Below are positions 10,040 to 50,363 of a DNA stretch of 64,000 nucleotides, piece by piece. This DNA is from a virus. The translations under genes were made by a program, and so were the position numbers. Each line of letters opens with the position of its first letter. Within the stretch, counting starts at the first letter, position 1. The DNA lies in the IMG/VR virus record IMGVR_UViG_3300030508_000019, one strand, 5' to 3'. Below the pieces are notes generated by a model that ran no database searches, had not been told where the DNA came from, and saw nothing but the letters and a program-made list of their open reading frames with translations.

Positions 10040-11125
10040 AATACCTTATTAGGCGGTATTAGACACTATGCTACAAGTCCAACTCAAACTTCGACCTTGT
10101 AAGGCGCAAGAACAAATCTACGACCAGTGGCTCTATAATTTGGCTTCGGTTTACAACTTTGCCGTCCGCAAGATCGAGCTAAACGCCAAGGACAAAATCT
10201 ACTTCTCCAAGAACGATTTTCAAAACTTGTTGGCGAACCACGGAGAGAAGTTGGGTATACCGAGCCACACAATTCAGGGCGTGCTCTGCACCGTCCACGA
10301 TGCGTGGAAGCGTTGCTTTAAGAAGACCGCAGGCAAACCAAAACTCAAAGGGATGCGTAACAAGATGTCCAGCATCCCGTTCCCCGATCCCATCAAGGCA
10401 CCAAAAGGCAACCGCATTACGCTTCCGGGTTTGGGCAGTGTCCGCTTTCACAAGCAGGAAATATCAGAGGGAAAGATCAAGTGTGGACGATTGATCAAGC
10501 GTGCGTCTGGATGGTATCTGTGTCTATTCATAGACGCAGAGCCGAATCCGATTAAGCGTTTGGCGTTTGGGGCGATAGGCATTGATCCCGGATTTTCAAA
10601 CCTGCTCACAACTTCGGATGGAGAGGTCATCGAACACCCACGGGAGTTAGAAGCGGCAGCAGAGCGTCTTGGACAAGCACAGCGTGGTCACAACAAACAG
10701 TTGGCAGCGAGGATTCAGGAGCGCATCGCCAACCGCAAGAAAGATAGGAACCACAAGCTAACAACGAAGCTGGTATCTGAGAACGTGCTCATAGTTTGGA
10801 GCAAAGATGCAATCAAGGGAATCGCAAAACGATTCGGGAAGAGCGTGAACAGTTCATCTCACGCACAAATTCGACAGATGTTGTCCTACAAGATGCCCAA
10901 AAGCGGTGGGACGTTTATCGAAGTTGCTTCCAAGTATTCCACCAAGACCTGTAACGAATGTGGTAATCCGACAGGACCCACAGGGCTTGCAGGCTTGTCG
11001 GTAAGGCAATGGCGATGTTCTGCTTGTGGAGCAGAGCACGACCGCGATGTCAATGCGGCTCGTAACACGCTATTCGCCGGGGCAGGATGTGCCCACGAGG
11101 AGTTGGCTTATGTCTAACTCGGACA
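10040..11125 (+). mobile_element. IS200/IS605-family TnpB-only insertion sequence (IS1341-like); boundaries approximate
   Basis: A subterminal hairpin AATACC…GGTATT at 10044-10064 sits just 5' of tnpB. No tnpA is present. The 3' end overlaps the mazG-like start. Confidence 0.55.
10068..11117 (+). CDS. tnpB: TnpB (IS605 OrfB) RNA-guided nuclease family protein
   Basis: RuvC-I IGIDPGFSN. Zinc finger CNECGN…CSACGAEH. RuvC-III DRDVNAARN. 349 aa, apparently intact. Confidence 0.8.
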   Translation: MLQVQLKLRPCKAQEQIYDQWLYNLASVYNFAVRKIELNAKDKIYFSKNDFQNLLANHGEKLGIPSHTIQGVLCTVHDAWKRCFKKTAGKPKLKGMRNKMSSIPFPDPIKAPKGNRITLPGLGSVRFHKQEISEGKIKCGRLIKRASGWYLCLFIDAEPNPIKRLAFGAIGIDPGFSNLLTTSDGEVIEHPRELEAAAERLGQAQRGHNKQLAARIQERIANRKKDRNHKLTTKLVSENVLIVWSKDAIKGIAKRFGKSVNSSSHAQIRQMLSYKMPKSGGTFIEVASKYSTKTCNECGNPTGPTGLAGLSVRQWRCSACGAEHDRDVNAARNTLFAGAGCAHEELAYV

Positions 11126-19642: not shown

Positions 19643-22234
19643 ATGCCTAATCTTTTACAAAAACTTACTTATTTCGACCCAGAAACCAGTAGACAATTTG
19701 TCATTGGGGATAAGGGATTCGCCTGGAAACAAGCGGTAAAATCTCCCGAAGACTCAAAAGTAACTCGTCTGGTAGCTCAATACGGCTGGGAATTGAAGTA
19801 CGGTACGGATACATTTTTGCTTTTTAAGCGCCCCAAGCAAAAAGGGGAATTAAATGTACTGCGAGGTACCAAACAATGGTTTTTGGACATGGGCGGGCCG
19901 GTTTATGAAGATACCCCCGGGGGAACGGGATTAAAGAGCCTACAGAGGGCTCTAGAGGATAACCAGATGAATATATCAAAAGCGGCTAACCCCGCTGCTA
20001 CAGCTGTTAATAACGCCGCAAAAGGCACTCCAGGATTAAATAGACGCCCAGATTACGCAGAAGCTGATTCCATTGTTGCTTTGGATGGTGGGGTTAAAAC
20101 AGGAAGTACGGGTTTGCCAGCTACTTTATATGTTACGAGCGCCGATTACAAAGGCATTACTCTAGAGAAATTTTCTTTTAGCCCAAATATCGAAAAAGCT
20201 AGGATATTTCCTCCTCTTATGGCTAAAAGTTTAAGCAATCAAATCAAAGGTAGATTTGGTGTCACTTCCCACATCATTTTAGCCTATAATTATGAGGAAA
20301 TGTTTAAGTCTATACTTGCTTTAAACCCTGAATCCAAGTTTTTGATAGATAAAGAAATTACATGGGCTAAGCGGAGTCTCAAAAAACAGGATCGAGTTAT
20401 TTGGTTTTTGCGCTGGATCCGCTTGGCTATCATGCAAGAACTTTATCATGCCGCTGGAGCCGCTGGATCTGGTAGACCTGCTGAACCAACATCCCCAGGC
20501 GAGAAATCCAGAGAACAGATTTATAAAGAGCGAGTAAAGAATGTTCTAGATCAATACAAAAAAGACATGTCAGCAAAAGGGGGAAATCCAGATGCTGATA
20601 GTATGAGTATAGGAGATTTATCGACTATACATGCAAATTTAGATCACTTTTATGGTTTGAATGTACCGGAGATCAATAATTATAGTCCGACAGTAGAAAC
20701 TTGGACTGATTTACGACAACGATTTTCTAGCATTGAGCAGGCTTGGGCAGAAGCAGCAAAACGAGGACTTAAACCTAAAACAGAAGATAAAGTTTTTATT
20801 AAGTTTCCCGATGGTTGGGCTTGGTGGTTTTTACCTCGCTCTTCCTGTGACCAAGAAGCTAAAGCCATGGGTCACTGCGGAAATTCCCCTTTCGCCGGTA
20901 GAGAAGGTATCGGCATACTCAGTTTACGCAGACCAGTTAAACACGGAAAAGATTTTTTGTGGGAACCTCATCTTACATTCATTCTTCATGAAGACCCACC
21001 AGGTGCTGACAGTGGAACTTTAGGGGAAATGAAGGGTAAAGGTAATGCAAAACCTACTCCTCAATACCATCCATATATTATGAAATTATTGGAAGATCAT
21101 AGAATACAAGGCGTTGGCGGCGGTGGATACTTAGCGTCTCACAATTTTTCTTTTTCTGATCTTACCCCTGAACAACAAGCCATCGTCAATAAAATTAATC
21201 CAGGCGTAGGAATGACCATCGCAGGATATTATAAAGAACATGGAATGGATGGAAAGCTGTTGAAAAAAATCAAAGCTATTTTGGGTTTAGAAAGTGCTAC
21301 ATACGACCCAAAATACGGAGTAGCGGTTGCCTCTTGGCCTAATGAAGAAGAGTTCATTAAGAAAACAGGTGACAGTGAAGCTAAGAAAGCGTGGATGTTT
21401 GTTCAGACTGGTGAACACAACTATGACAGCCCGGATATCGATGAACTCACGGACTTGCTTAACGGAATCAATGATCCGCAAATCCATAATATTGGTTTAT
21501 CCCTCACTTATGATTTTCCAGTAGAAATGCAATCATGGTATTCAAATTTCAACCCTAATGATAAAGTTGCGGTGAAATTGGCGCTTACAGATTTATATAA
21601 TGCTTACATCGCTAAAGGGCAAAAAGTTTTTGACCAGGAAGTTGACAAACTCAAAAAATATTTAACTACTCAGGAAAATGAGATGAATGAAACGGGAGGA
21701 TTCGCAAATCCTGAAGTTATACAAGAGATAAAAGAAAAATTAAAGGGTTACGATCAAAATAAAGTGTGGGATGCTGTGCCTGTACTACAAAAATTGCATG
21801 CTGCATATGTGGCTGGGGGACCAAACCAAGCAGAGGTAAGGGCAAATATTAAAAAGAAAGTCCAAGAAGGCTTAAAAGATAAAGATAGGATCAAAATCAC
21901 AACAACCACCGATGGTCGTTATTTGCAACTCATGGATGAAAAGAAACTGGTAAAAGATGCCCAAGGCCACCAAGACGCTGGAGGCACGGGAGGGTATTAC
22001 GATACTCCCGAATTTCGCTGGTCATTCCCCTATGATTGGGATGAGTGGAACCCCGAAAGAACAAATAAGGCTGTAGCTAAACTTTTTGGCGAACCTTCTA
22101 AAAAACCATCAAGGAATGTGAAGCAAAAAAGACTGTTTCCTGAGCCAAAAACTAATGAAGATGCCGTGCGCAAAGGCATTGCAGTGTCAAGTTTTAGGAA
22201 TCCCTTATTACAAAAAAGACTCATTTTTGAGTAG
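19643..22234 (+). CDS. large hypothetical protein (863 aa)
   Basis: Long uninterrupted ORF. No motif recognised by eye. Contains HCGNSPFAGREG. Lies immediately upstream of the HD-hydrolase / AAA-ATPase cluster. Confidence 0.5.
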   Translation: MPNLLQKLTYFDPETSRQFVIGDKGFAWKQAVKSPEDSKVTRLVAQYGWELKYGTDTFLLFKRPKQKGELNVLRGTKQWFLDMGGPVYEDTPGGTGLKSLQRALEDNQMNISKAANPAATAVNNAAKGTPGLNRRPDYAEADSIVALDGGVKTGSTGLPATLYVTSADYKGITLEKFSFSPNIEKARIFPPLMAKSLSNQIKGRFGVTSHIILAYNYEEMFKSILALNPESKFLIDKEITWAKRSLKKQDRVIWFLRWIRLAIMQELYHAAGAAGSGRPAEPTSPGEKSREQIYKERVKNVLDQYKKDMSAKGGNPDADSMSIGDLSTIHANLDHFYGLNVPEINNYSPTVETWTDLRQRFSSIEQAWAEAAKRGLKPKTEDKVFIKFPDGWAWWFLPRSSCDQEAKAMGHCGNSPFAGREGIGILSLRRPVKHGKDFLWEPHLTFILHEDPPGADSGTLGEMKGKGNAKPTPQYHPYIMKLLEDHRIQGVGGGGYLASHNFSFSDLTPEQQAIVNKINPGVGMTIAGYYKEHGMDGKLLKKIKAILGLESATYDPKYGVAVASWPNEEEFIKKTGDSEAKKAWMFVQTGEHNYDSPDIDELTDLLNGINDPQIHNIGLSLTYDFPVEMQSWYSNFNPNDKVAVKLALTDLYNAYIAKGQKVFDQEVDKLKKYLTTQENEMNETGGFANPEVIQEIKEKLKGYDQNKVWDAVPVLQKLHAAYVAGGPNQAEVRANIKKKVQEGLKDKDRIKITTTTDGRYLQLMDEKKLVKDAQGHQDAGGTGGYYDTPEFRWSFPYDWDEWNPERTNKAVAKLFGEPSKKPSRNVKQKRLFPEPKTNEDAVRKGIAVSSFRNPLLQKRLIFE

Positions 22235-22266: not shown

Positions 22267-23037
22267 ATGAGTAGTTTACTCGAAATAGCTATTGAGCTGG
22301 CGCTGAAAGCACACCATGGGCAAATAGACTCGGATGGTGACCCTCACATTCTTCACAGCTTAGAGGTCATGTTTGCTGTAAAAAAAGAACTGGAATGTGC
22401 CCCCAATGAAACTCCAGATTGTTGCCTTCCCGTTTTATATGGAGCTACAAAAGAGCAACTTTTAGTAGCGGCTGTACTTCACGATGTGGTTGAAGACACT
22501 GATTTTTCTCTTGATCAGGTTCGTAAAGAATTCGGAGATGTGGTTGCAGATATCGTAGATTCCGTTACCCGACGTGAATCCGATGGAATAAAAGAATTTT
22601 ATCGTGATTTTATTTATCGAGCCCGCGCGTCGAAAGGCGGAAGACTAGTTAAAATCGCAGACCTCCTCACAAATCTTAAACGCCTTCCAAATATTAAAAT
22701 CGCTCACCCAAAATGGCATGACAAACTTCAATATAAATATCACTTAGCAAAACGGGTGTTGCAGACTGAAGATGATGCTGCTTACAAGGTGGGTCAGTAT
22801 ACGCAGTTCGGAGGCTACGTGGTGCAGACTGAAGATGATGCTGCTTACAAGGTGGGCCAGCAGTTCGGAGGCTACGAAAAAGTGCGGCAGGTAAAGCTTT
22901 GGGAGAAGCTTTCTGGGGAGATTAGGGGTTATGACCCAAAGCAGTATTTTATTGCTGATCCCGATGGTAAACGCAAAGAAATTTCATCTGCTGAGTTTAC
23001 ATTCTTATTTCCTACCAAGCTACCCGAACCGAACTAG
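22267..23037 (+). CDS. HD-domain (p)ppGpp hydrolase-like protein (RelA/SpoT HD family, small alarmone hydrolase type)
   Basis: ALKAHHGQIDSDGDPHILHSLEV… AAVLHDVVEDT… FGDVVADIVDSVTR match the SpoT/Mesh1 HD hydrolase motifs. Confidence 0.65.
   Translation: MSSLLEIAIELALKAHHGQIDSDGDPHILHSLEVMFAVKKELECAPNETPDCCLPVLYGATKEQLLVAAVLHDVVEDTDFSLDQVRKEFGDVVADIVDSVTRRESDGIKEFYRDFIYRARASKGGRLVKIADLLTNLKRLPNIKIAHPKWHDKLQYKYHLAKRVLQTEDDAAYKVGQYTQFGGYVVQTEDDAAYKVGQQFGGYEKVRQVKLWEKLSGEIRGYDPKQYFIADPDGKRKEISSAEFTFLFPTKLPEPN
22760..22880. repeat. approx. 60-bp tandem duplication inside the HD-domain gene
   Basis: 'gcagactgaagatgatgctgcttacaaggtggg(t/c)cag' occurs twice in tandem. The protein repeat is VQTEDDAAYKVGQ. 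Confidence 0.8.
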
Positions 23038-23105
23038 CAGCTTGTGACCTAGAAAAGTATTATTCTTTTATGGTAAACTCAGCATCTAAGATTTGAGGAA
23101 CAAAA

Positions 23106-24617
23106 ATGTCGATGACTGACAAGGAAATCGCTGTTGTCAATAATGCGCGTGAAAAGATTACGGAGCAGCAAAATCTTTTAAAACGCCTCACCGCCGCCGC
23201 TTATCATGTGGGAGTCGTTACCGCTGTTTTGGATAAATCGGTGATTGTAGTTACGGCAAATCAAGTTTTTGAGTTAGATCAAGTTGAAAGTTCTATCCCA
23301 GTAAAAGTAGGAATGTCAGTAGACGTTCATCCCGAAACGGGACAAATTGTTCGGGTAAGCGACTACACTACTTACGGGGTATCTGGAACTGTCGTCCAAA
23401 TAGACGATAAAACAATCCAACTTAATACCCCATCTGGTATATTGGCTACTGATTACGCTACCGTCCCCGTGGAAATTGGGGATCATGTGATCATGGACAG
23501 TACAAACCATGTCATCATCAAAAAAATAAATCAGACTTCTAAATTTGCCTTTAAAACGAATGCAGTTTTAACCTGGGATGATATTGGCGCATGCGAAGAT
23601 GCTAAAAAGGCAATTATTGCAGCGCTGGAAACTCCTTATGTTAAAAAAGATATTTTTAAGTATTTCCACAAAAAAGAAGTTAAAGGGGCTCTTTTGTGGG
23701 GTCGCGCAGGGAACGGTAAAACGCTCATCGGAAGAGCGGCCGCAGGTTCCTTGGCTCGTATGCACAGCAAAGAATCAGTGGAATCCGGATTTGTTTACAT
23801 TAAAGGGCCGGAGATTTTAGATAAATATGTAGGTGAGTCAGAAAGTCAAATTCGTTTGGCATTTGATTTTTGTAAACGCCACTACAAAAAATACGGGTAC
23901 CCTGCTATTTTATTCATTGATGAAGCAGATGCTATTTTAATGCGCCGGGGAAGCCGCACATCCGCTGGCATGGAGCAAACCATTGTTCCCCAATTTCTCT
24001 CTGAAATGGATGGAATTGAAGATAGCGGGACTTTTGTGCTTTTGGCAACCAATCGGGCTGATACGCTGGATCCCGCTGTAATTCGTCCTGGGCGTATAGA
24101 TCGACCAGTTTATGTAGCGCCCCCAACGAAGGAAAATGCGCCATCCATTTGGAATATTCATATGCGGAATGTTCCTTTATCCAAGGGGGTCAGCTCTGAG
24201 GAATTGATTAAAACTACCAATGAAAGACTTTTTAGCGAACAATATCCATTGTATAAATTGGAAACAACTATAGGAACTAGGGTTTTCAGTTTAGGTAGTC
24301 TGGTCAGTGGAGCGCTCATCGCTGGTATTGTAGAGCGAGCTTCGGCGGTTGCTATTGATCGTAATAATGACGCTAAAAATATTGATGGGTTGTGTCAAAA
24401 AGATTTCGACATTGCTTTAACAGCTATGCATAAAGAGCAGTATGGTATGAATCACATGGATGAGCTACGAGAGTTCGTTGAGAATCAAAAATTGCAAGTA
24501 ACAGCTATGGAGCAGTACCATAACGGGGTGAAGATCGATGTTCGTTCTCCATCTTCACCTACGGCACAACTGGTAGCTGTTCCAATTCCAAGTTCAAAAC
24601 AGAGGTATGATTCCTAA
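23106..24617 (+). CDS. AAA ATPase, proteasome-associated type (ARC/Mpa/PAN-like)
   Basis: N-terminal coiled coil plus OB-fold-like region. Walker A GRAGNGKT. Walker B ILFIDEADAI. Second region of homology (SRH) ATNRADTLDPAVIRPGRIDR of classic AAA proteins. Confidence 0.75.
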   Translation: MSMTDKEIAVVNNAREKITEQQNLLKRLTAAAYHVGVVTAVLDKSVIVVTANQVFELDQVESSIPVKVGMSVDVHPETGQIVRVSDYTTYGVSGTVVQIDDKTIQLNTPSGILATDYATVPVEIGDHVIMDSTNHVIIKKINQTSKFAFKTNAVLTWDDIGACEDAKKAIIAALETPYVKKDIFKYFHKKEVKGALLWGRAGNGKTLIGRAAAGSLARMHSKESVESGFVYIKGPEILDKYVGESESQIRLAFDFCKRHYKKYGYPAILFIDEADAILMRRGSRTSAGMEQTIVPQFLSEMDGIEDSGTFVLLATNRADTLDPAVIRPGRIDRPVYVAPPTKENAPSIWNIHMRNVPLSKGVSSEELIKTTNERLFSEQYPLYKLETTIGTRVFSLGSLVSGALIAGIVERASAVAIDRNNDAKNIDGLCQKDFDIALTAMHKEQYGMNHMDELREFVENQKLQVTAMEQYHNGVKIDVRSPSSPTAQLVAVPIPSSKQRYDS

Positions 24618-24827
24618 ATGTCTCAAGTACAAAAAGAAAGACCACAAGAAAAGAAACCTCGCCCTCAAGAAAATCATGGTCCAACTCTCGATGCAAATAT
24701 TGACATAGGGGATGCGGATGATATTTTGAAGGAGCTTGAAGAAATTGAACACCCGAACCAGAATATACCAGAATATTTTAGAGCACCCTGTTGTGTAGCA
24801 ATAGCTAAAAAGAAATCGGTTCGCTAA
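24618..24827 (+). CDS. small acidic protein, Pup-like
   Basis: The start codon abuts the ATPase stop. GDADDILKELEEIEH…NIPEYFRAP resembles the Pup helix DDLLDEIDDVLEENAEDFVRAY. It lacks a C-terminal GG[QE]. Confidence 0.35.
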   Translation: MSQVQKERPQEKKPRPQENHGPTLDANIDIGDADDILKELEEIEHPNQNIPEYFRAPCCVAIAKKKSVR

Positions 24828-25135
24828 TGCAGGAAAAGAAAACAAAACCGGCAATTCCTGTAAAGAAAGGAAAAGGTATTTCTCCGATCAATATCCATCT
24901 TGACCCTGTAGGCGACATTGTGGGTGAATTGTATGAGATCTCAAATCCCCGTCAGCGATTCGAAATTCAGTACACTGAAATTGATATACGTTCCACAAGG
25001 GGTGTTTGCCCCAACACTGGGCAGTACACCGATTTATCATTTAGCGCTGAAAAACCTCGTATTCAAGCTTGTAGAGTGGGTTGTTCTTGCCACGCCTGTC
25101 TTTACAATAATTGTATCGGACACATAGAGCCATGA
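24827..25135 (+). CDS. hypothetical Cys-rich protein
   Basis: 102 aa. CRVGCSCHAC cluster. Confidence 0.35.
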   Translation: MQEKKTKPAIPVKKGKGISPINIHLDPVGDIVGELYEISNPRQRFEIQYTEIDIRSTRGVCPNTGQYTDLSFSAEKPRIQACRVGCSCHACLYNNCIGHIEP

Positions 25136-25446
25136 ATTTATCCGCTTTATTCCAACTGGTATACCTTAGCATCCCGTGTGGTGCTCTGAGTGCATTGATC
25201 ACCCAAGGGGCGATATTTAACCCTCTACATGCTGCGTTACGTTTACGTAGCCCTTGGCTGGACGAATTGCTTTCCTGCCCATGGTGTACAAGTCAGTGGA
25301 TTGCGGCTATTTTGGTGTGTATTTATCACCCAATCGTGATCTCTTGTTGGGCTCCAATTGACTATTTTGTATCAATTTTAGTGATGGCTGCACTTGCGTC
25401 TGTCACCGTTAAGCTGGTATACTCAATATACAAGTCTATGGACTAA
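25111..25446 (+). CDS. small membrane protein
   Basis: 111 aa with three hydrophobic segments and a CPWC motif. Confidence 0.35.
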   Translation: MYRTHRAMNLSALFQLVYLSIPCGALSALITQGAIFNPLHAALRLRSPWLDELLSCPWCTSQWIAAILVCIYHPIVISCWAPIDYFVSILVMAALASVTVKLVYSIYKSMD

Positions 25447-34858: not shown

Positions 34859-35122
34859 ATGGCATATGTAATTGCTGAGCCATGCATAGGGGTAAAGGAT
34901 ACCGCATGCGTGGACTCTTGCCCTGTAGACTGCATACACCCCAAGAAGGGGACTCCTGAGTTTGATCAGAATCCCCAACTTTACATTGATCCTGTGGAGT
35001 GTATTGACTGCGGAGCGTGTGTTCCTGTGTGTCCTGTATCCGCTATCTTTCCAGTAGATGATTTACCCGAACAATGGAAGCATTTTACCGCTATCAACGC
35101 AAAGTATTTTGGGAGAGAATAA
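34859..35122 (+). CDS. 7Fe-type ferredoxin
   Basis: CIGVKDTACVDSCP plus CIDCGACVPVCP cysteine patterns. 87 aa. Confidence 0.75.
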   Translation: MAYVIAEPCIGVKDTACVDSCPVDCIHPKKGTPEFDQNPQLYIDPVECIDCGACVPVCPVSAIFPVDDLPEQWKHFTAINAKYFGRE

Positions 35123-50291: not shown

Positions 50292-50363
50292 GATACACGT
50301 AGCTCAATTGGTAGAGCAGCGCCATTAACGGCGCTGATGTGGGTTCGATCCCCACCGTGAGGA
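50292..50363 (+). tRNA. tRNA-like gene with non-canonical anticodon loop (GCGCC-ATTAAC-GGCGC; 6- or 8-nt loop containing UUAA)
   Basis: D-arm GCTC-AATTGGTA-GAGC and T-arm GTGGG-TTCGATC-CCCAC are canonical. Acceptor pairing is poor. No CCA. Confidence 0.35.

Follow-up and report, generated by a model that had tools for sequence, protein, structure and literature searches.

What does a proteasome-type unfoldase do in a phage-like genome, and what is the small protein encoded directly behind it? The question is raised by IMG/VR virus record IMGVR_UViG_3300030508_000019, here analyzed as a single stretch of 64,000 nucleotides (hereafter the window). The initial annotation of this DNA had described positions 22267-24827 as a proteasome-type AAA ATPase coupled to a Pup-like acidic peptide, beside a (p)ppGpp-hydrolase-like gene. 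The open reading frames (ORFs) that it named (an HD-domain gene, the ATPase, a 69-amino-acid ORF and an 863-amino-acid ORF upstream) are all recovered where it placed them, and the ATPase stop does abut the start of the small ORF, TAA being followed at once by ATG. The end of the range has to be moved: two further coupled genes, at 24827-25135 and 25132-25446, were missed, as was a terminal cysteine pair in the 69-amino-acid (aa) protein. Positions 23106-25446 form a single translationally coupled unit, comprising a predicted hexameric unfoldase, one or two disordered small proteins and a DUF1360 protein:

23106-24617, plus strand: predicted Mpa/ARC-type AAA ATPase, 503 aa (pup_AAA profile, N-domain profile, fold match)
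24618-24827, plus strand: small disordered protein, 69 aa, with a Pup-like handle (family alignment; orthologs in loci L001-L003)
24827-25135, plus strand: second small protein, 102 aa, Cys/His-rich (counterparts in L002-L005)
25132-25446, plus strand: DUF1360 membrane protein (PF07098), 104 aa from ATG, or 111 aa from the TTG at 25111

The intergenic spacings across these four genes are 0, -1 and -4 nt. The stop of the 69-aa ORF and the start of the 102-aa ORF share one nucleotide (TAATG), and the DUF1360 start overlaps the end of the 102-aa ORF as ATGA. The unit is found repeatedly: many huge-phage contigs carry it, and so do contigs assigned to Saccharibacteria and Parcubacteria genome bins. 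We tentatively read it as a ligase-free, Pup-like handle system in which a cysteine pair links the handle to DUF1360. This overall picture is possible, at rather less than an even chance; the pairing of peptide and ATPase is likelier than the picture as a whole, and a metal clasp is less likely.

The ATPase is assigned, by profile and predicted fold, to the Mpa/ARC type: a short coiled coil leads into a pair of OB barrels and a single AAA module. The protein had been likened to ARC, Mpa and PAN, and this likeness holds for the entire architecture. The NCBIfam model pup_AAA (TIGR03689) is the top-scoring AAA model, at 246.3 bits versus 171 for CDC48 and 153 for PAN, and aligns residues 6-446 to model positions 19-483 of 512; its equivalog cut-off of 504.75 bits is not reached. 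The Pfam AAA match has an expect value (E) of 3e-29. A profile of the N-terminal 152 residues, built from 23 homologs, matches Mpa (3m9b, E 6e-5), ARC (2wfw), PAN (2wg5 and 3h43) and the Rpt subunits Rpt4 and Rpt2, and nothing else of note; the aligned part of Mpa runs from the end of its coiled coil through OB domain 1. An AlphaFold (AF2) model, with a predicted local distance difference test score (pLDDT) of 82.5, contains a coiled coil followed by tandem OB domains and one classic AAA module:

23118-23189, plus strand: coiled-coil helix, residues 5-28 (AF2)
23205-23528, plus strand: two OB-like barrels, residues 34-141, with strands at 34-85 and 90-141 (AF2)
23568-24230, plus strand: AAA module, residues ~155-375
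to residue ~470, plus strand: C-terminal helical domain
residues 474-503, plus strand: disordered tail, ending RYDS (AF2)

In a Foldseek search with this model, M. tuberculosis Mpa accounts for every one of the 30 best PDB matches (alignments of ~470-500 columns, E 1e-35 to 1e-28, template modeling score [TM] 0.6-0.7), followed by Rpt subunits at E ~1e-25. The Walker A lysine (K205), Walker B residues (D272/E273), sensor 1 asparagine (N316) and two arginines (R327 and R330) are invariant among 36 homologs, as are K240 and G243 of the pore loop KYVGE. No GQYL or HbYX-type docking tail with a penultimate aromatic residue was found in the ATPase, which ends ...KQRYDS. Mpa itself ends GQYL, with the penultimate residue aromatic, for docking on the 20S proteasome (PMC8223512). 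In the close subfamily of the window ATPase, the C terminus has a different conserved tail (window 24525-24614), ...VVAIPxP...K-x-[YF]-D-[AS], whose aromatic residue is the third from last. This tail could serve as a docking motif toward some partner; it is absent from the more distant ATPases and from most of those that carry the module.

The 69-aa ORF had been put forward as a partner of the ATPase without the terminal GG[QE] of Pup, and both parts of this description stand. It was called by independent gene callers, and its C-terminal end reads ...APCCVAIAKKKSVR / ...PCCVAIAKKKSVR, with GG[QE] not present. The protein is small and, like Pup, intrinsically disordered as predicted: its AF2 model (pLDDT 60, predicted TM 0.2) is structured solely at the helix spanning residues 33-44.

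residues 1-25, plus strand: basic, Pro-rich N-terminal tail
24714-24749, plus strand: acidic helix DDILKELEEIEH, residues 33-44 (AF2 helix)
24789-24794, plus strand: cysteine pair C58-C59, then a basic C-terminal tail

Three relatives of ~450 kb (L001-L003), whose ATPases are 50-64% identical to that of the window, encode an ORF of 60-68 aa at the equivalent position; two of these ORFs begin with an ATG directly behind the ATPase stop. The 69-aa ORF is 51-53% identical to those of L001 and L002. All three share an ERPQEKKPRPQ N-terminal stretch, a DDILKELxxIEHP helix, more divergent in L003, and a C-terminal cysteine pair. We surveyed the small ORFs downstream of ATPase homologs in 40 viral loci and ~36 genome loci. 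These are hydrophilic ORFs of 56-100 aa that start a few nucleotides from the ATPase stop; they have a basic N terminus, often with a Gly run, the motif hP-D-V-D-D-x-L-x-E-I-D-x-A-L, and an extreme C terminus that is mostly CGCW, CGCF, CTC or CCCC (family type CxC[WF]). Aligning 32 members leaves just three invariant positions, the initiator Met and two Cys, and the helix has the consensus PDVDDxLxEIDxAL. An exhaustive profile search of 1.84 billion representative proteins (E<=1e-3) gave 36 matches, all but one of 56-87 aa; those inspected all have the family architecture, and none is a Pup or ends GG[QE]. The 69-aa ORF, with its ATPase-adjacent position, basic tail, acidic helix and Cys pair, is thus classified from its sequence as a divergent member of this ATPase-adjacent, Cys-ended family. 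Neither it nor the 102-aa ORF matches any family in Pfam, PHROGs or NCBIfam, and a selection test on the near-identical variants L126-L129 gave no usable synonymous/nonsynonymous signal.

How Pup-like is the helix? When the family is aligned to 24 actinobacterial Pups with hhalign, the match has a probability of 76% (P 2e-5) over 19 columns, which correspond to Pup residues 32-50 (LTEETDDLLDEIDDVLEEN). They form the central part of the Pup segment (residues ~21-51) that becomes helical on binding to the coiled coil of Mpa (PMC8223512). Column-shuffled Pup profiles score at most 14 versus 26 for the real family/Pup pair, and UBact scores 12 against Pup in an equal test. Column shuffling of the small-protein alignment proved unstable (gap columns, with outliers to 132), and the shuffled and reversed Pup controls were relied on. 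The Pfam Pup model matches 2 of the 32 family members weakly, with a best E of 0.046. When a Pup hidden Markov model (HMM) was run on the 6705 small ORFs of the fetched loci, 16 of the 25 best-scoring ORFs start beside an ATPase stop, a position held by only 175 of the 6705 (2.6%; hypergeometric P 4e-20). Two of the helices lie particularly near Pup, ETDRLLDEIDEILE (L055) and VDDLLGEIDQLL (L051). The first of these belongs to an extra paralog that lies ~1.1 kb further downstream in two Saccharibacteria-binned loci (L055 3298-3540 and L049 3313-3558); it is the nearest to Pup that we saw (Pup HMM E 0.0025 among 8193 sequences), and the paralog ends CGSCWG.

Our reading is that the family helix is probably Pup-like in a meaningful, class-wide manner, whether by homology or by convergence. 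The initial annotation had based the resemblance on a longer stretch. Its helical part, DDILKELEEIE, is the sole part kept across the family and is supported at the family level by the hhalign match and the Pup HMM enrichment; the adjoining stretch, NIPEYFRAP set against NAEDFVRAY of Pup, differs even in the 94%-identical variants P0137 and P0143 and falls away.

The fourth gene of the unit provides the second constant element. The window DUF1360 scores 27.2 bits against PF07098, for which the gathering cut-off is 21, and E 6e-36 against an HMM derived from the loci. The latter model finds exactly one copy per locus in 35 of 35 loci, on the ATPase strand and just downstream of it, and never elsewhere in their flanks. 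All-versus-all clustering of the flanking ORFs shows DUF1360 to be the only family besides the ATPase common to all 35 loci; no protease, ligase or HD protein is shared among these flanks. The alignment comprises three hydrophobic helices: a K/R-rich loop of ~35 residues lies behind helix 1, and helix 2 opens with the invariant S-C-P-[YW]-C-x-S-H-W, both Cys included. By the positive-inside rule, the CPxC probably faces the cytoplasm. In the window the motif lies as follows:

25276-25287, plus strand: CPWC motif of DUF1360, start of helix 2

The cysteines of the small proteins vary with the presence of DUF1360. Taking the ORFs between the ATPase and DUF1360, or those directly downstream of the ATPase where DUF1360 is absent, a hand count finds two-Cys termini (C-x(0-2)-C) in 28 of the 34 DUF1360 loci so classified versus 1 of 13 DUF1360-less loci (Fisher P 4e-6). 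The other 12 of these 13 loci, all with a small Cys protein, carry a knuckle of at least three Cys, e.g. CGICHDENCPY, CCCENPNCFIGP or CRECGERHCPYGY. This pattern fits one site built by two peptide Cys and two DUF1360 Cys, with the knuckles as self-sufficient sites. CPYC is also the active-site motif of glutaredoxins, and the link could equally be an iron-sulfur (Fe-S) cluster or, given CPYC, a disulfide. A zinc clasp between two proteins has been described for CD4/CD8alpha with Lck (PMC12198760).

We weigh a model in which the small protein would act as a counterpart of Pup without a ligase. The acidic amphipathic helix (DDILKELEEIE in the window) would dock on the N-terminal coiled coil of the ATPase, and the free, basic, Gly-rich N-terminal tail would go into the pore; the C terminus would bear cargo or an anchor, with the polarity of substrate-attached Pup. 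The cysteine pair would replace both GG[QE] and the isopeptide bond by joining the CPxC of DUF1360, through a shared metal (a CD4/Lck-like zinc clasp), an Fe-S cluster or a disulfide. The unfoldase would thereby be tethered to DUF1360, or would pull on it. In relatives without DUF1360 the handle is backed by a self-sufficient knuckle of at least three Cys or by a larger domain. Because no 20S subunit, PafA/Dop or GQYL tail was found, the outcome is probably remodeling or extraction rather than proteasomal degradation. The broader claim, that huge phages and ultra-small bacteria use a ligase-free counterpart of pupylation whose handle is joined to DUF1360 via a CxC/CPxC metal site, with a proteasome-type unfoldase working on this membrane target in the absence of a proteasome, we consider doubtful.

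Several observations weigh against this model, each mechanistic step of which is inferred. Individually, the 69-aa protein is detected by no Pup profile; the search proposed with the initial annotation, against the Pfam profile (PF05639), gives no match even at E<=10. With reversed profiles as controls the score is 21, and the real pair reaches 26; to a large extent, therefore, the likeness to Pup appears to be a generic acidic amphipathic helix pattern. Against a family profile built without the window's lineage, the 69-aa ORF reaches an E of just 0.21 (L002, 3.7e-4; L003, 0.013; L001, 0.056), at which it is the top-scoring ORF within the window. Where the family usually has a terminal CxC[WF], the window variant has adjacent cysteines (CC) and an 11-residue basic tail, which differs even between near-identical variants. 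The coiled coil of the ATPase has ~24 residues; that of Mpa has ~50. The topology of DUF1360 is read from charge distribution alone. The association of two-Cys ends with DUF1360 was classified by hand, the loci are phylogenetically related, and an automated count of Cys type versus DUF1360, contaminated by spurious ORFs, is not significant (P 0.12); because of this relatedness and noise, we grade the association as suggestive only. Bacteroidales-type relatives carry the handle with neither cysteine nor DUF1360, and a cysteine link would therefore not be needed for pairing with the ATPase.

The Bacteroidales-type loci (L053-L074) encode ATPases of 595-630 aa, followed by a 55-70-aa ORF with a handle of the form (MK)RRFRQKQ...DIDDVIxEIDTxL (e.g. 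L057 5239-5433 and L069 5239-5439); several of these contigs span 300-1100 kb. Handles fused to larger C-terminal parts are also found, in the second small ORFs of L002 and L003. In L011 (6820-7230), a 136-aa ORF after DUF1360 (family HMM E 2e-6) joins the handle to ~70 C-terminal residues that include no cysteine, and from its sequence looks like a genetically tagged protein. Given these Cys-less and fused forms, the constant element thus seems to be the N-terminal handle, and the C terminus the variable one.

Two observations touch on metals. The window contains IscA/HesB-like, IscU/NifU-like scaffold and 4Fe-4S ferredoxin genes (1895-2227, 2242-2622 and 34859-35122, respectively), and these phage-borne Fe-S assembly genes might bear on the proposed cysteine link. 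On the Saccharibacteria-binned contig L047 (6604-8907, minus strand), the trio of ATPase, small protein and DUF1360 adjoins a heavy-metal P-type ATPase (HMA and E1-E2 domains), which may be a coincidence or a hint of a metal link.

The module is not restricted to phages. The 462 kb uncultured phage LR756500.1 carries the trio, and so do contigs from genome bins of Saccharibacteria, Parcubacteria and Woesebacteria and from one Gammaproteobacteria bin. Its neighbors in the bacterial bins are cellular-looking genes (heavy-metal P-type ATPase, TrmB regulator, LexA-like repressor and PspA), and on this ground we conclude that the module is not phage-only. In a rough neighbor-joining (NJ) tree of the AAA cores, a clade of phage, Saccharibacteria/Parcubacteria-type and Bacteroidales sequences is sister to the Mpa homologs of Nitrospira, Nitrospina and Fimbriimonas. 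A scan of viral contigs with the single ATPase protein found nothing; an alignment-based scan recovered the relatives. The exact ATPase of this phage is recorded in 120 blocks of the sequence collection, and this phage variant is thus widely sampled. Isolated phages yielded no close homolog of the ATPase. The "proteasome-associated ATPases" of Brevundimonas phages were rejected as relatives: they match in the AAA part alone, at 31% identity, and the module is absent. Against the BFVD viral structures the ATPase gave generic AAA matches only (TM <=0.48). In the literature searched, no phage or ultra-small-bacterium Mpa/Pup-like system is described, and a broad comparative survey of jumbo phages makes no mention of such an ATPase. 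DUF1360 is named in just two papers of that literature, and its strict pairing with an ATPase of Mpa type and a peptide with a Cys end seems not to have been described before.

Among the alternatives, the one that survives best holds that the small proteins are short-lived regulators or metal-binding peptides that reach the ATPase as degron-bearing substrates and have their levels set by it, with DUF1360 a separate, co-expressed function. A disordered N terminus followed by a helix is a typical entry signal for unfoldases, the knuckles of three to six Cys resemble small zinc-binding domains, and one natural variant has lost the 102-aa paralog. Against it stand the strict presence of DUF1360 (35 of 35 loci, with overlapping start and stop codons) and the two-Cys ends that go with DUF1360, and no conserved protease lies nearby that would finish the degradation; we judge this explanation rather unlikely.

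A related explanation supplies the protease from elsewhere: the ATPase would feed an unlinked one (host ClpP, FtsH or HslV, or a 20S encoded at another site), and the small proteins would be adaptors. The characterized coiled-coil/OB AAA ATPases all pair with a proteolytic core (PMC8223512), and the 64 kb examined here belong to a genome of possibly >178 kb. The initial annotation had seen neither a ligase nor a 20S subunit in the window. The Pfam sweeps agree: among the families listed for the window's 82 longer plus-strand ORFs there is no Pup_ligase or Proteasome match. Likewise, neither the window nor the regions flanking the phage, Bacteroidales and Saccharibacteria/Parcubacteria-binned loci yielded dop/pafA, pup or prcBA, and in the flanks of ~75 loci the Proteasome family is met only in Nitrospira/Nitrospina-type clusters. 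These absences, together with a C terminus that lacks the penultimate-aromatic motif (RYDS in the window ATPase, no tail in most relatives), make an unlinked protease unlikely.

The explanation first offered for this locus casts the small protein as a decoy, adaptor or inhibitor that acts on a Pup-proteasome or unfoldase pathway of the host. Mimicry of host factors is common among phages, and a Pup-like helix without a ligatable end would suit such a role. The small protein is, however, always co-encoded and coupled with its own Mpa-like ATPase and DUF1360, also beside cellular-looking genes on Saccharibacteria- and Parcubacteria-binned contigs; its conserved cysteine pair would have no role, and the loci give no pointer to a Pup-bearing host. 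We regard this explanation as improbable and not supported.

It is similarly improbable that the unit is an export machine, in which the ATPase, docked on a DUF1360 oligomer, would thread the Cys-ended peptide across the membrane as an effector or signal. Substrates of proteasomal ATPases do exit at the face that bears the C-terminal tails, the K-x-[YF]-D-[AS] tail of the close subfamily could dock there, and the partner is a membrane protein. DUF1360, however, is small, with three helices and no sign of a pore, the docking tail is absent in most module ATPases, and handles fused to larger parts exist. We know of no AAA-driven exporter of this kind. A lysis timer, in which the small protein would hold a holin-like DUF1360 in check until it is itself removed by the ATPase, would make use of a small three-helix membrane protein coupled to a remodeling ATPase in a phage, but it is scarcely credible in surroundings of nucleotide-metabolism and replication rather than lysis genes and for a unit that also occurs in bacterial bins beside a P-type ATPase and regulators. 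A precursor of a ribosomally synthesized and post-translationally modified peptide, considered for the Cys-ended peptides, was rejected, no modifying enzyme being conserved nearby.

The ligase-free handle thus remains our tentative reading for the 69-aa protein, and the second small protein shares part of its layout. The 102-aa protein has a basic N terminus, a helix-like motif (PVGDIVGELYEIS) and a C-terminal Cys/His cluster (CRVGCSCHACLYNNCIGH), and its counterparts in L002-L005 carry a C..GC.C..C...NC motif. In L128, a natural variant of the same phage, codon 34 of this ORF is a stop, and the gene may therefore be dispensable.

Two genes upstream had been counted with the ATPase:

19643-22234, plus strand: 863-aa ORF, lineage-specific neighbor, upstream of the HD gene
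22267-23037, plus strand: HD-domain protein, 256 aa, RelA/SpoT-hydrolase-like; neighbor, outside the core module

For the second, an alarmone-hydrolase-like label is a fair one by sequence: the protein matches HD_4 at 36.1 bits (cut-off 27.2) and PHROG 990 at E 4e-32, carries the HDxxED-type motif LHDVVEDT, and has residues 8-140 aligned by NCBIfam spoT_relA to the N-terminal hydrolase part. The 863-aa protein has no match in Pfam, PHROG or NCBIfam; its position is taken by an 848-aa counterpart in L003 and by a 592-aa protein with a GP88 match in L002. The HD gene lies upstream of the ATPase in the close relatives L002 and L003 only, and both genes are neighbors in the closest relatives rather than members of a unit conserved across the module. 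Within the HD gene, a 63-nt tandem duplication (22756-22797 and 22819-22860) repeats the peptide VQTEDDAAYKVGQ. It was recovered by a general repeat search and missed by Tandem Repeats Finder, and it is polymorphic, L129 having a 235-aa version that is 21 aa (63 nt) shorter.

The wider surroundings comprise nucleotide-metabolism and replication genes (the HD hydrolase, a dGTP diphosphohydrolase-like gene and an NAD ligase). All long ORFs of the window lie on one strand, several match auxiliary PHROG families, and the whole resembles the non-structural region of a very large phage genome. The ATPase has relatives both on IMG/VR viral contigs and on contigs of 450 kb; because no virion gene was found in the window, the term phage-like rests on these relatives. 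The window also carries 22 tRNA genes (14333-53207), all on the plus strand and most of them clustered (37.6-39.4 kb and 48.3-53.2 kb); in one of the ARAGORN predictions (50293-50363) the anticodon loop is irregular. In a 626-aa protein at 43016-44896, Pfam recognizes the shoulder (E 2e-24) and vault-repeat (E 1e-8) domains of Major Vault Protein, and such a vault-type protein is unusual for a phage-like genome. A TnpB-like protein (Cas12f1-like TNB and OrfB_IS605) is encoded at 10068-11117, inside a phage-like region.

To our knowledge, Mpa-Pup recognition has so far been known solely together with a ligase and the 20S proteasome, in Actinobacteria and a few UBact-bearing phyla. The loci described here add a large sister clade of Mpa-type ATPases, from huge phages, Saccharibacteria/Parcubacteria-binned contigs and Bacteroidales bins, each paired with its own Pup-like peptide and with no ligase or proteasome nearby. 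The recognition principle of Mpa and Pup appears to serve here in the absence of both ligase and proteasome, and a membrane protein would be linked in through cysteines. If this is true, recognition of a helix by a coiled coil would be older and more widespread than pupylation, DUF1360, a family whose function is not known, would gain its first functional context, and phage infection would include a new, membrane-linked type of unfoldase, testable as a four-gene cassette.

Among known systems, the closest likeness is to Mpa/ARC and Pup. The ATPase has the same domain order and fold as Mpa/ARC (coiled coil, two OB domains, AAA module, C-terminal domain), at an identity of ~25% in the structural alignment and with a coiled coil of about half the length. 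Its partner resembles Pup in being small and disordered, with a basic, Gly-rich N terminus that is free, an acidic helix aligned to Pup 32-50 and attachment at the C-terminal side. In contrast to the Pup system, the partner lacks GG[QE], PafA/Dop, the 20S and GQYL were not found, and the Cys-ended partner is encoded right after the ATPase and is followed by DUF1360.

The UBact systems of Nitrospirae, Nitrospinae and Armatimonadetes provide the nearest cellular sister clade of the ATPase in the NJ tree, at 29-35% identity. UBact, too, is small and disordered; it has a helix of the form D-x-LLKRM, and its N-terminal half is basic and rich in Pro. The UBact loci differ in being arranged mpa-dop-UBact-prcB-prcA (L083-L094), and the protein ends RTG[EQ]. 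Homology of the phage family to UBact was considered and rejected: the hhalign P of 0.01-0.02 is within the shuffle range, and the family has neither an R-x-G-[EQ] end nor a dop-prcB setting. PAN and Rpt1-6 share the order of coiled coil, OB and AAA and a conserved Pro where the coiled coil meets the OB domain (LTAP in the window ATPase). They differ in that a single OB domain is present and docking on the 20S relies on an HbYX tail, and their substrates arrive via ubiquitin, SAMP or unstructured ends rather than through a co-encoded, dedicated peptide.

For the proposed cysteine link, the nearest likeness is CD4/CD8alpha with Lck, where a CxC and two further Cys share one Zn2+ and one partner is membrane-bound (PMC12198760). 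This is an analogy only, to an unrelated eukaryotic system; here the membrane protein would give the CxxC and the soluble peptide the CxC.

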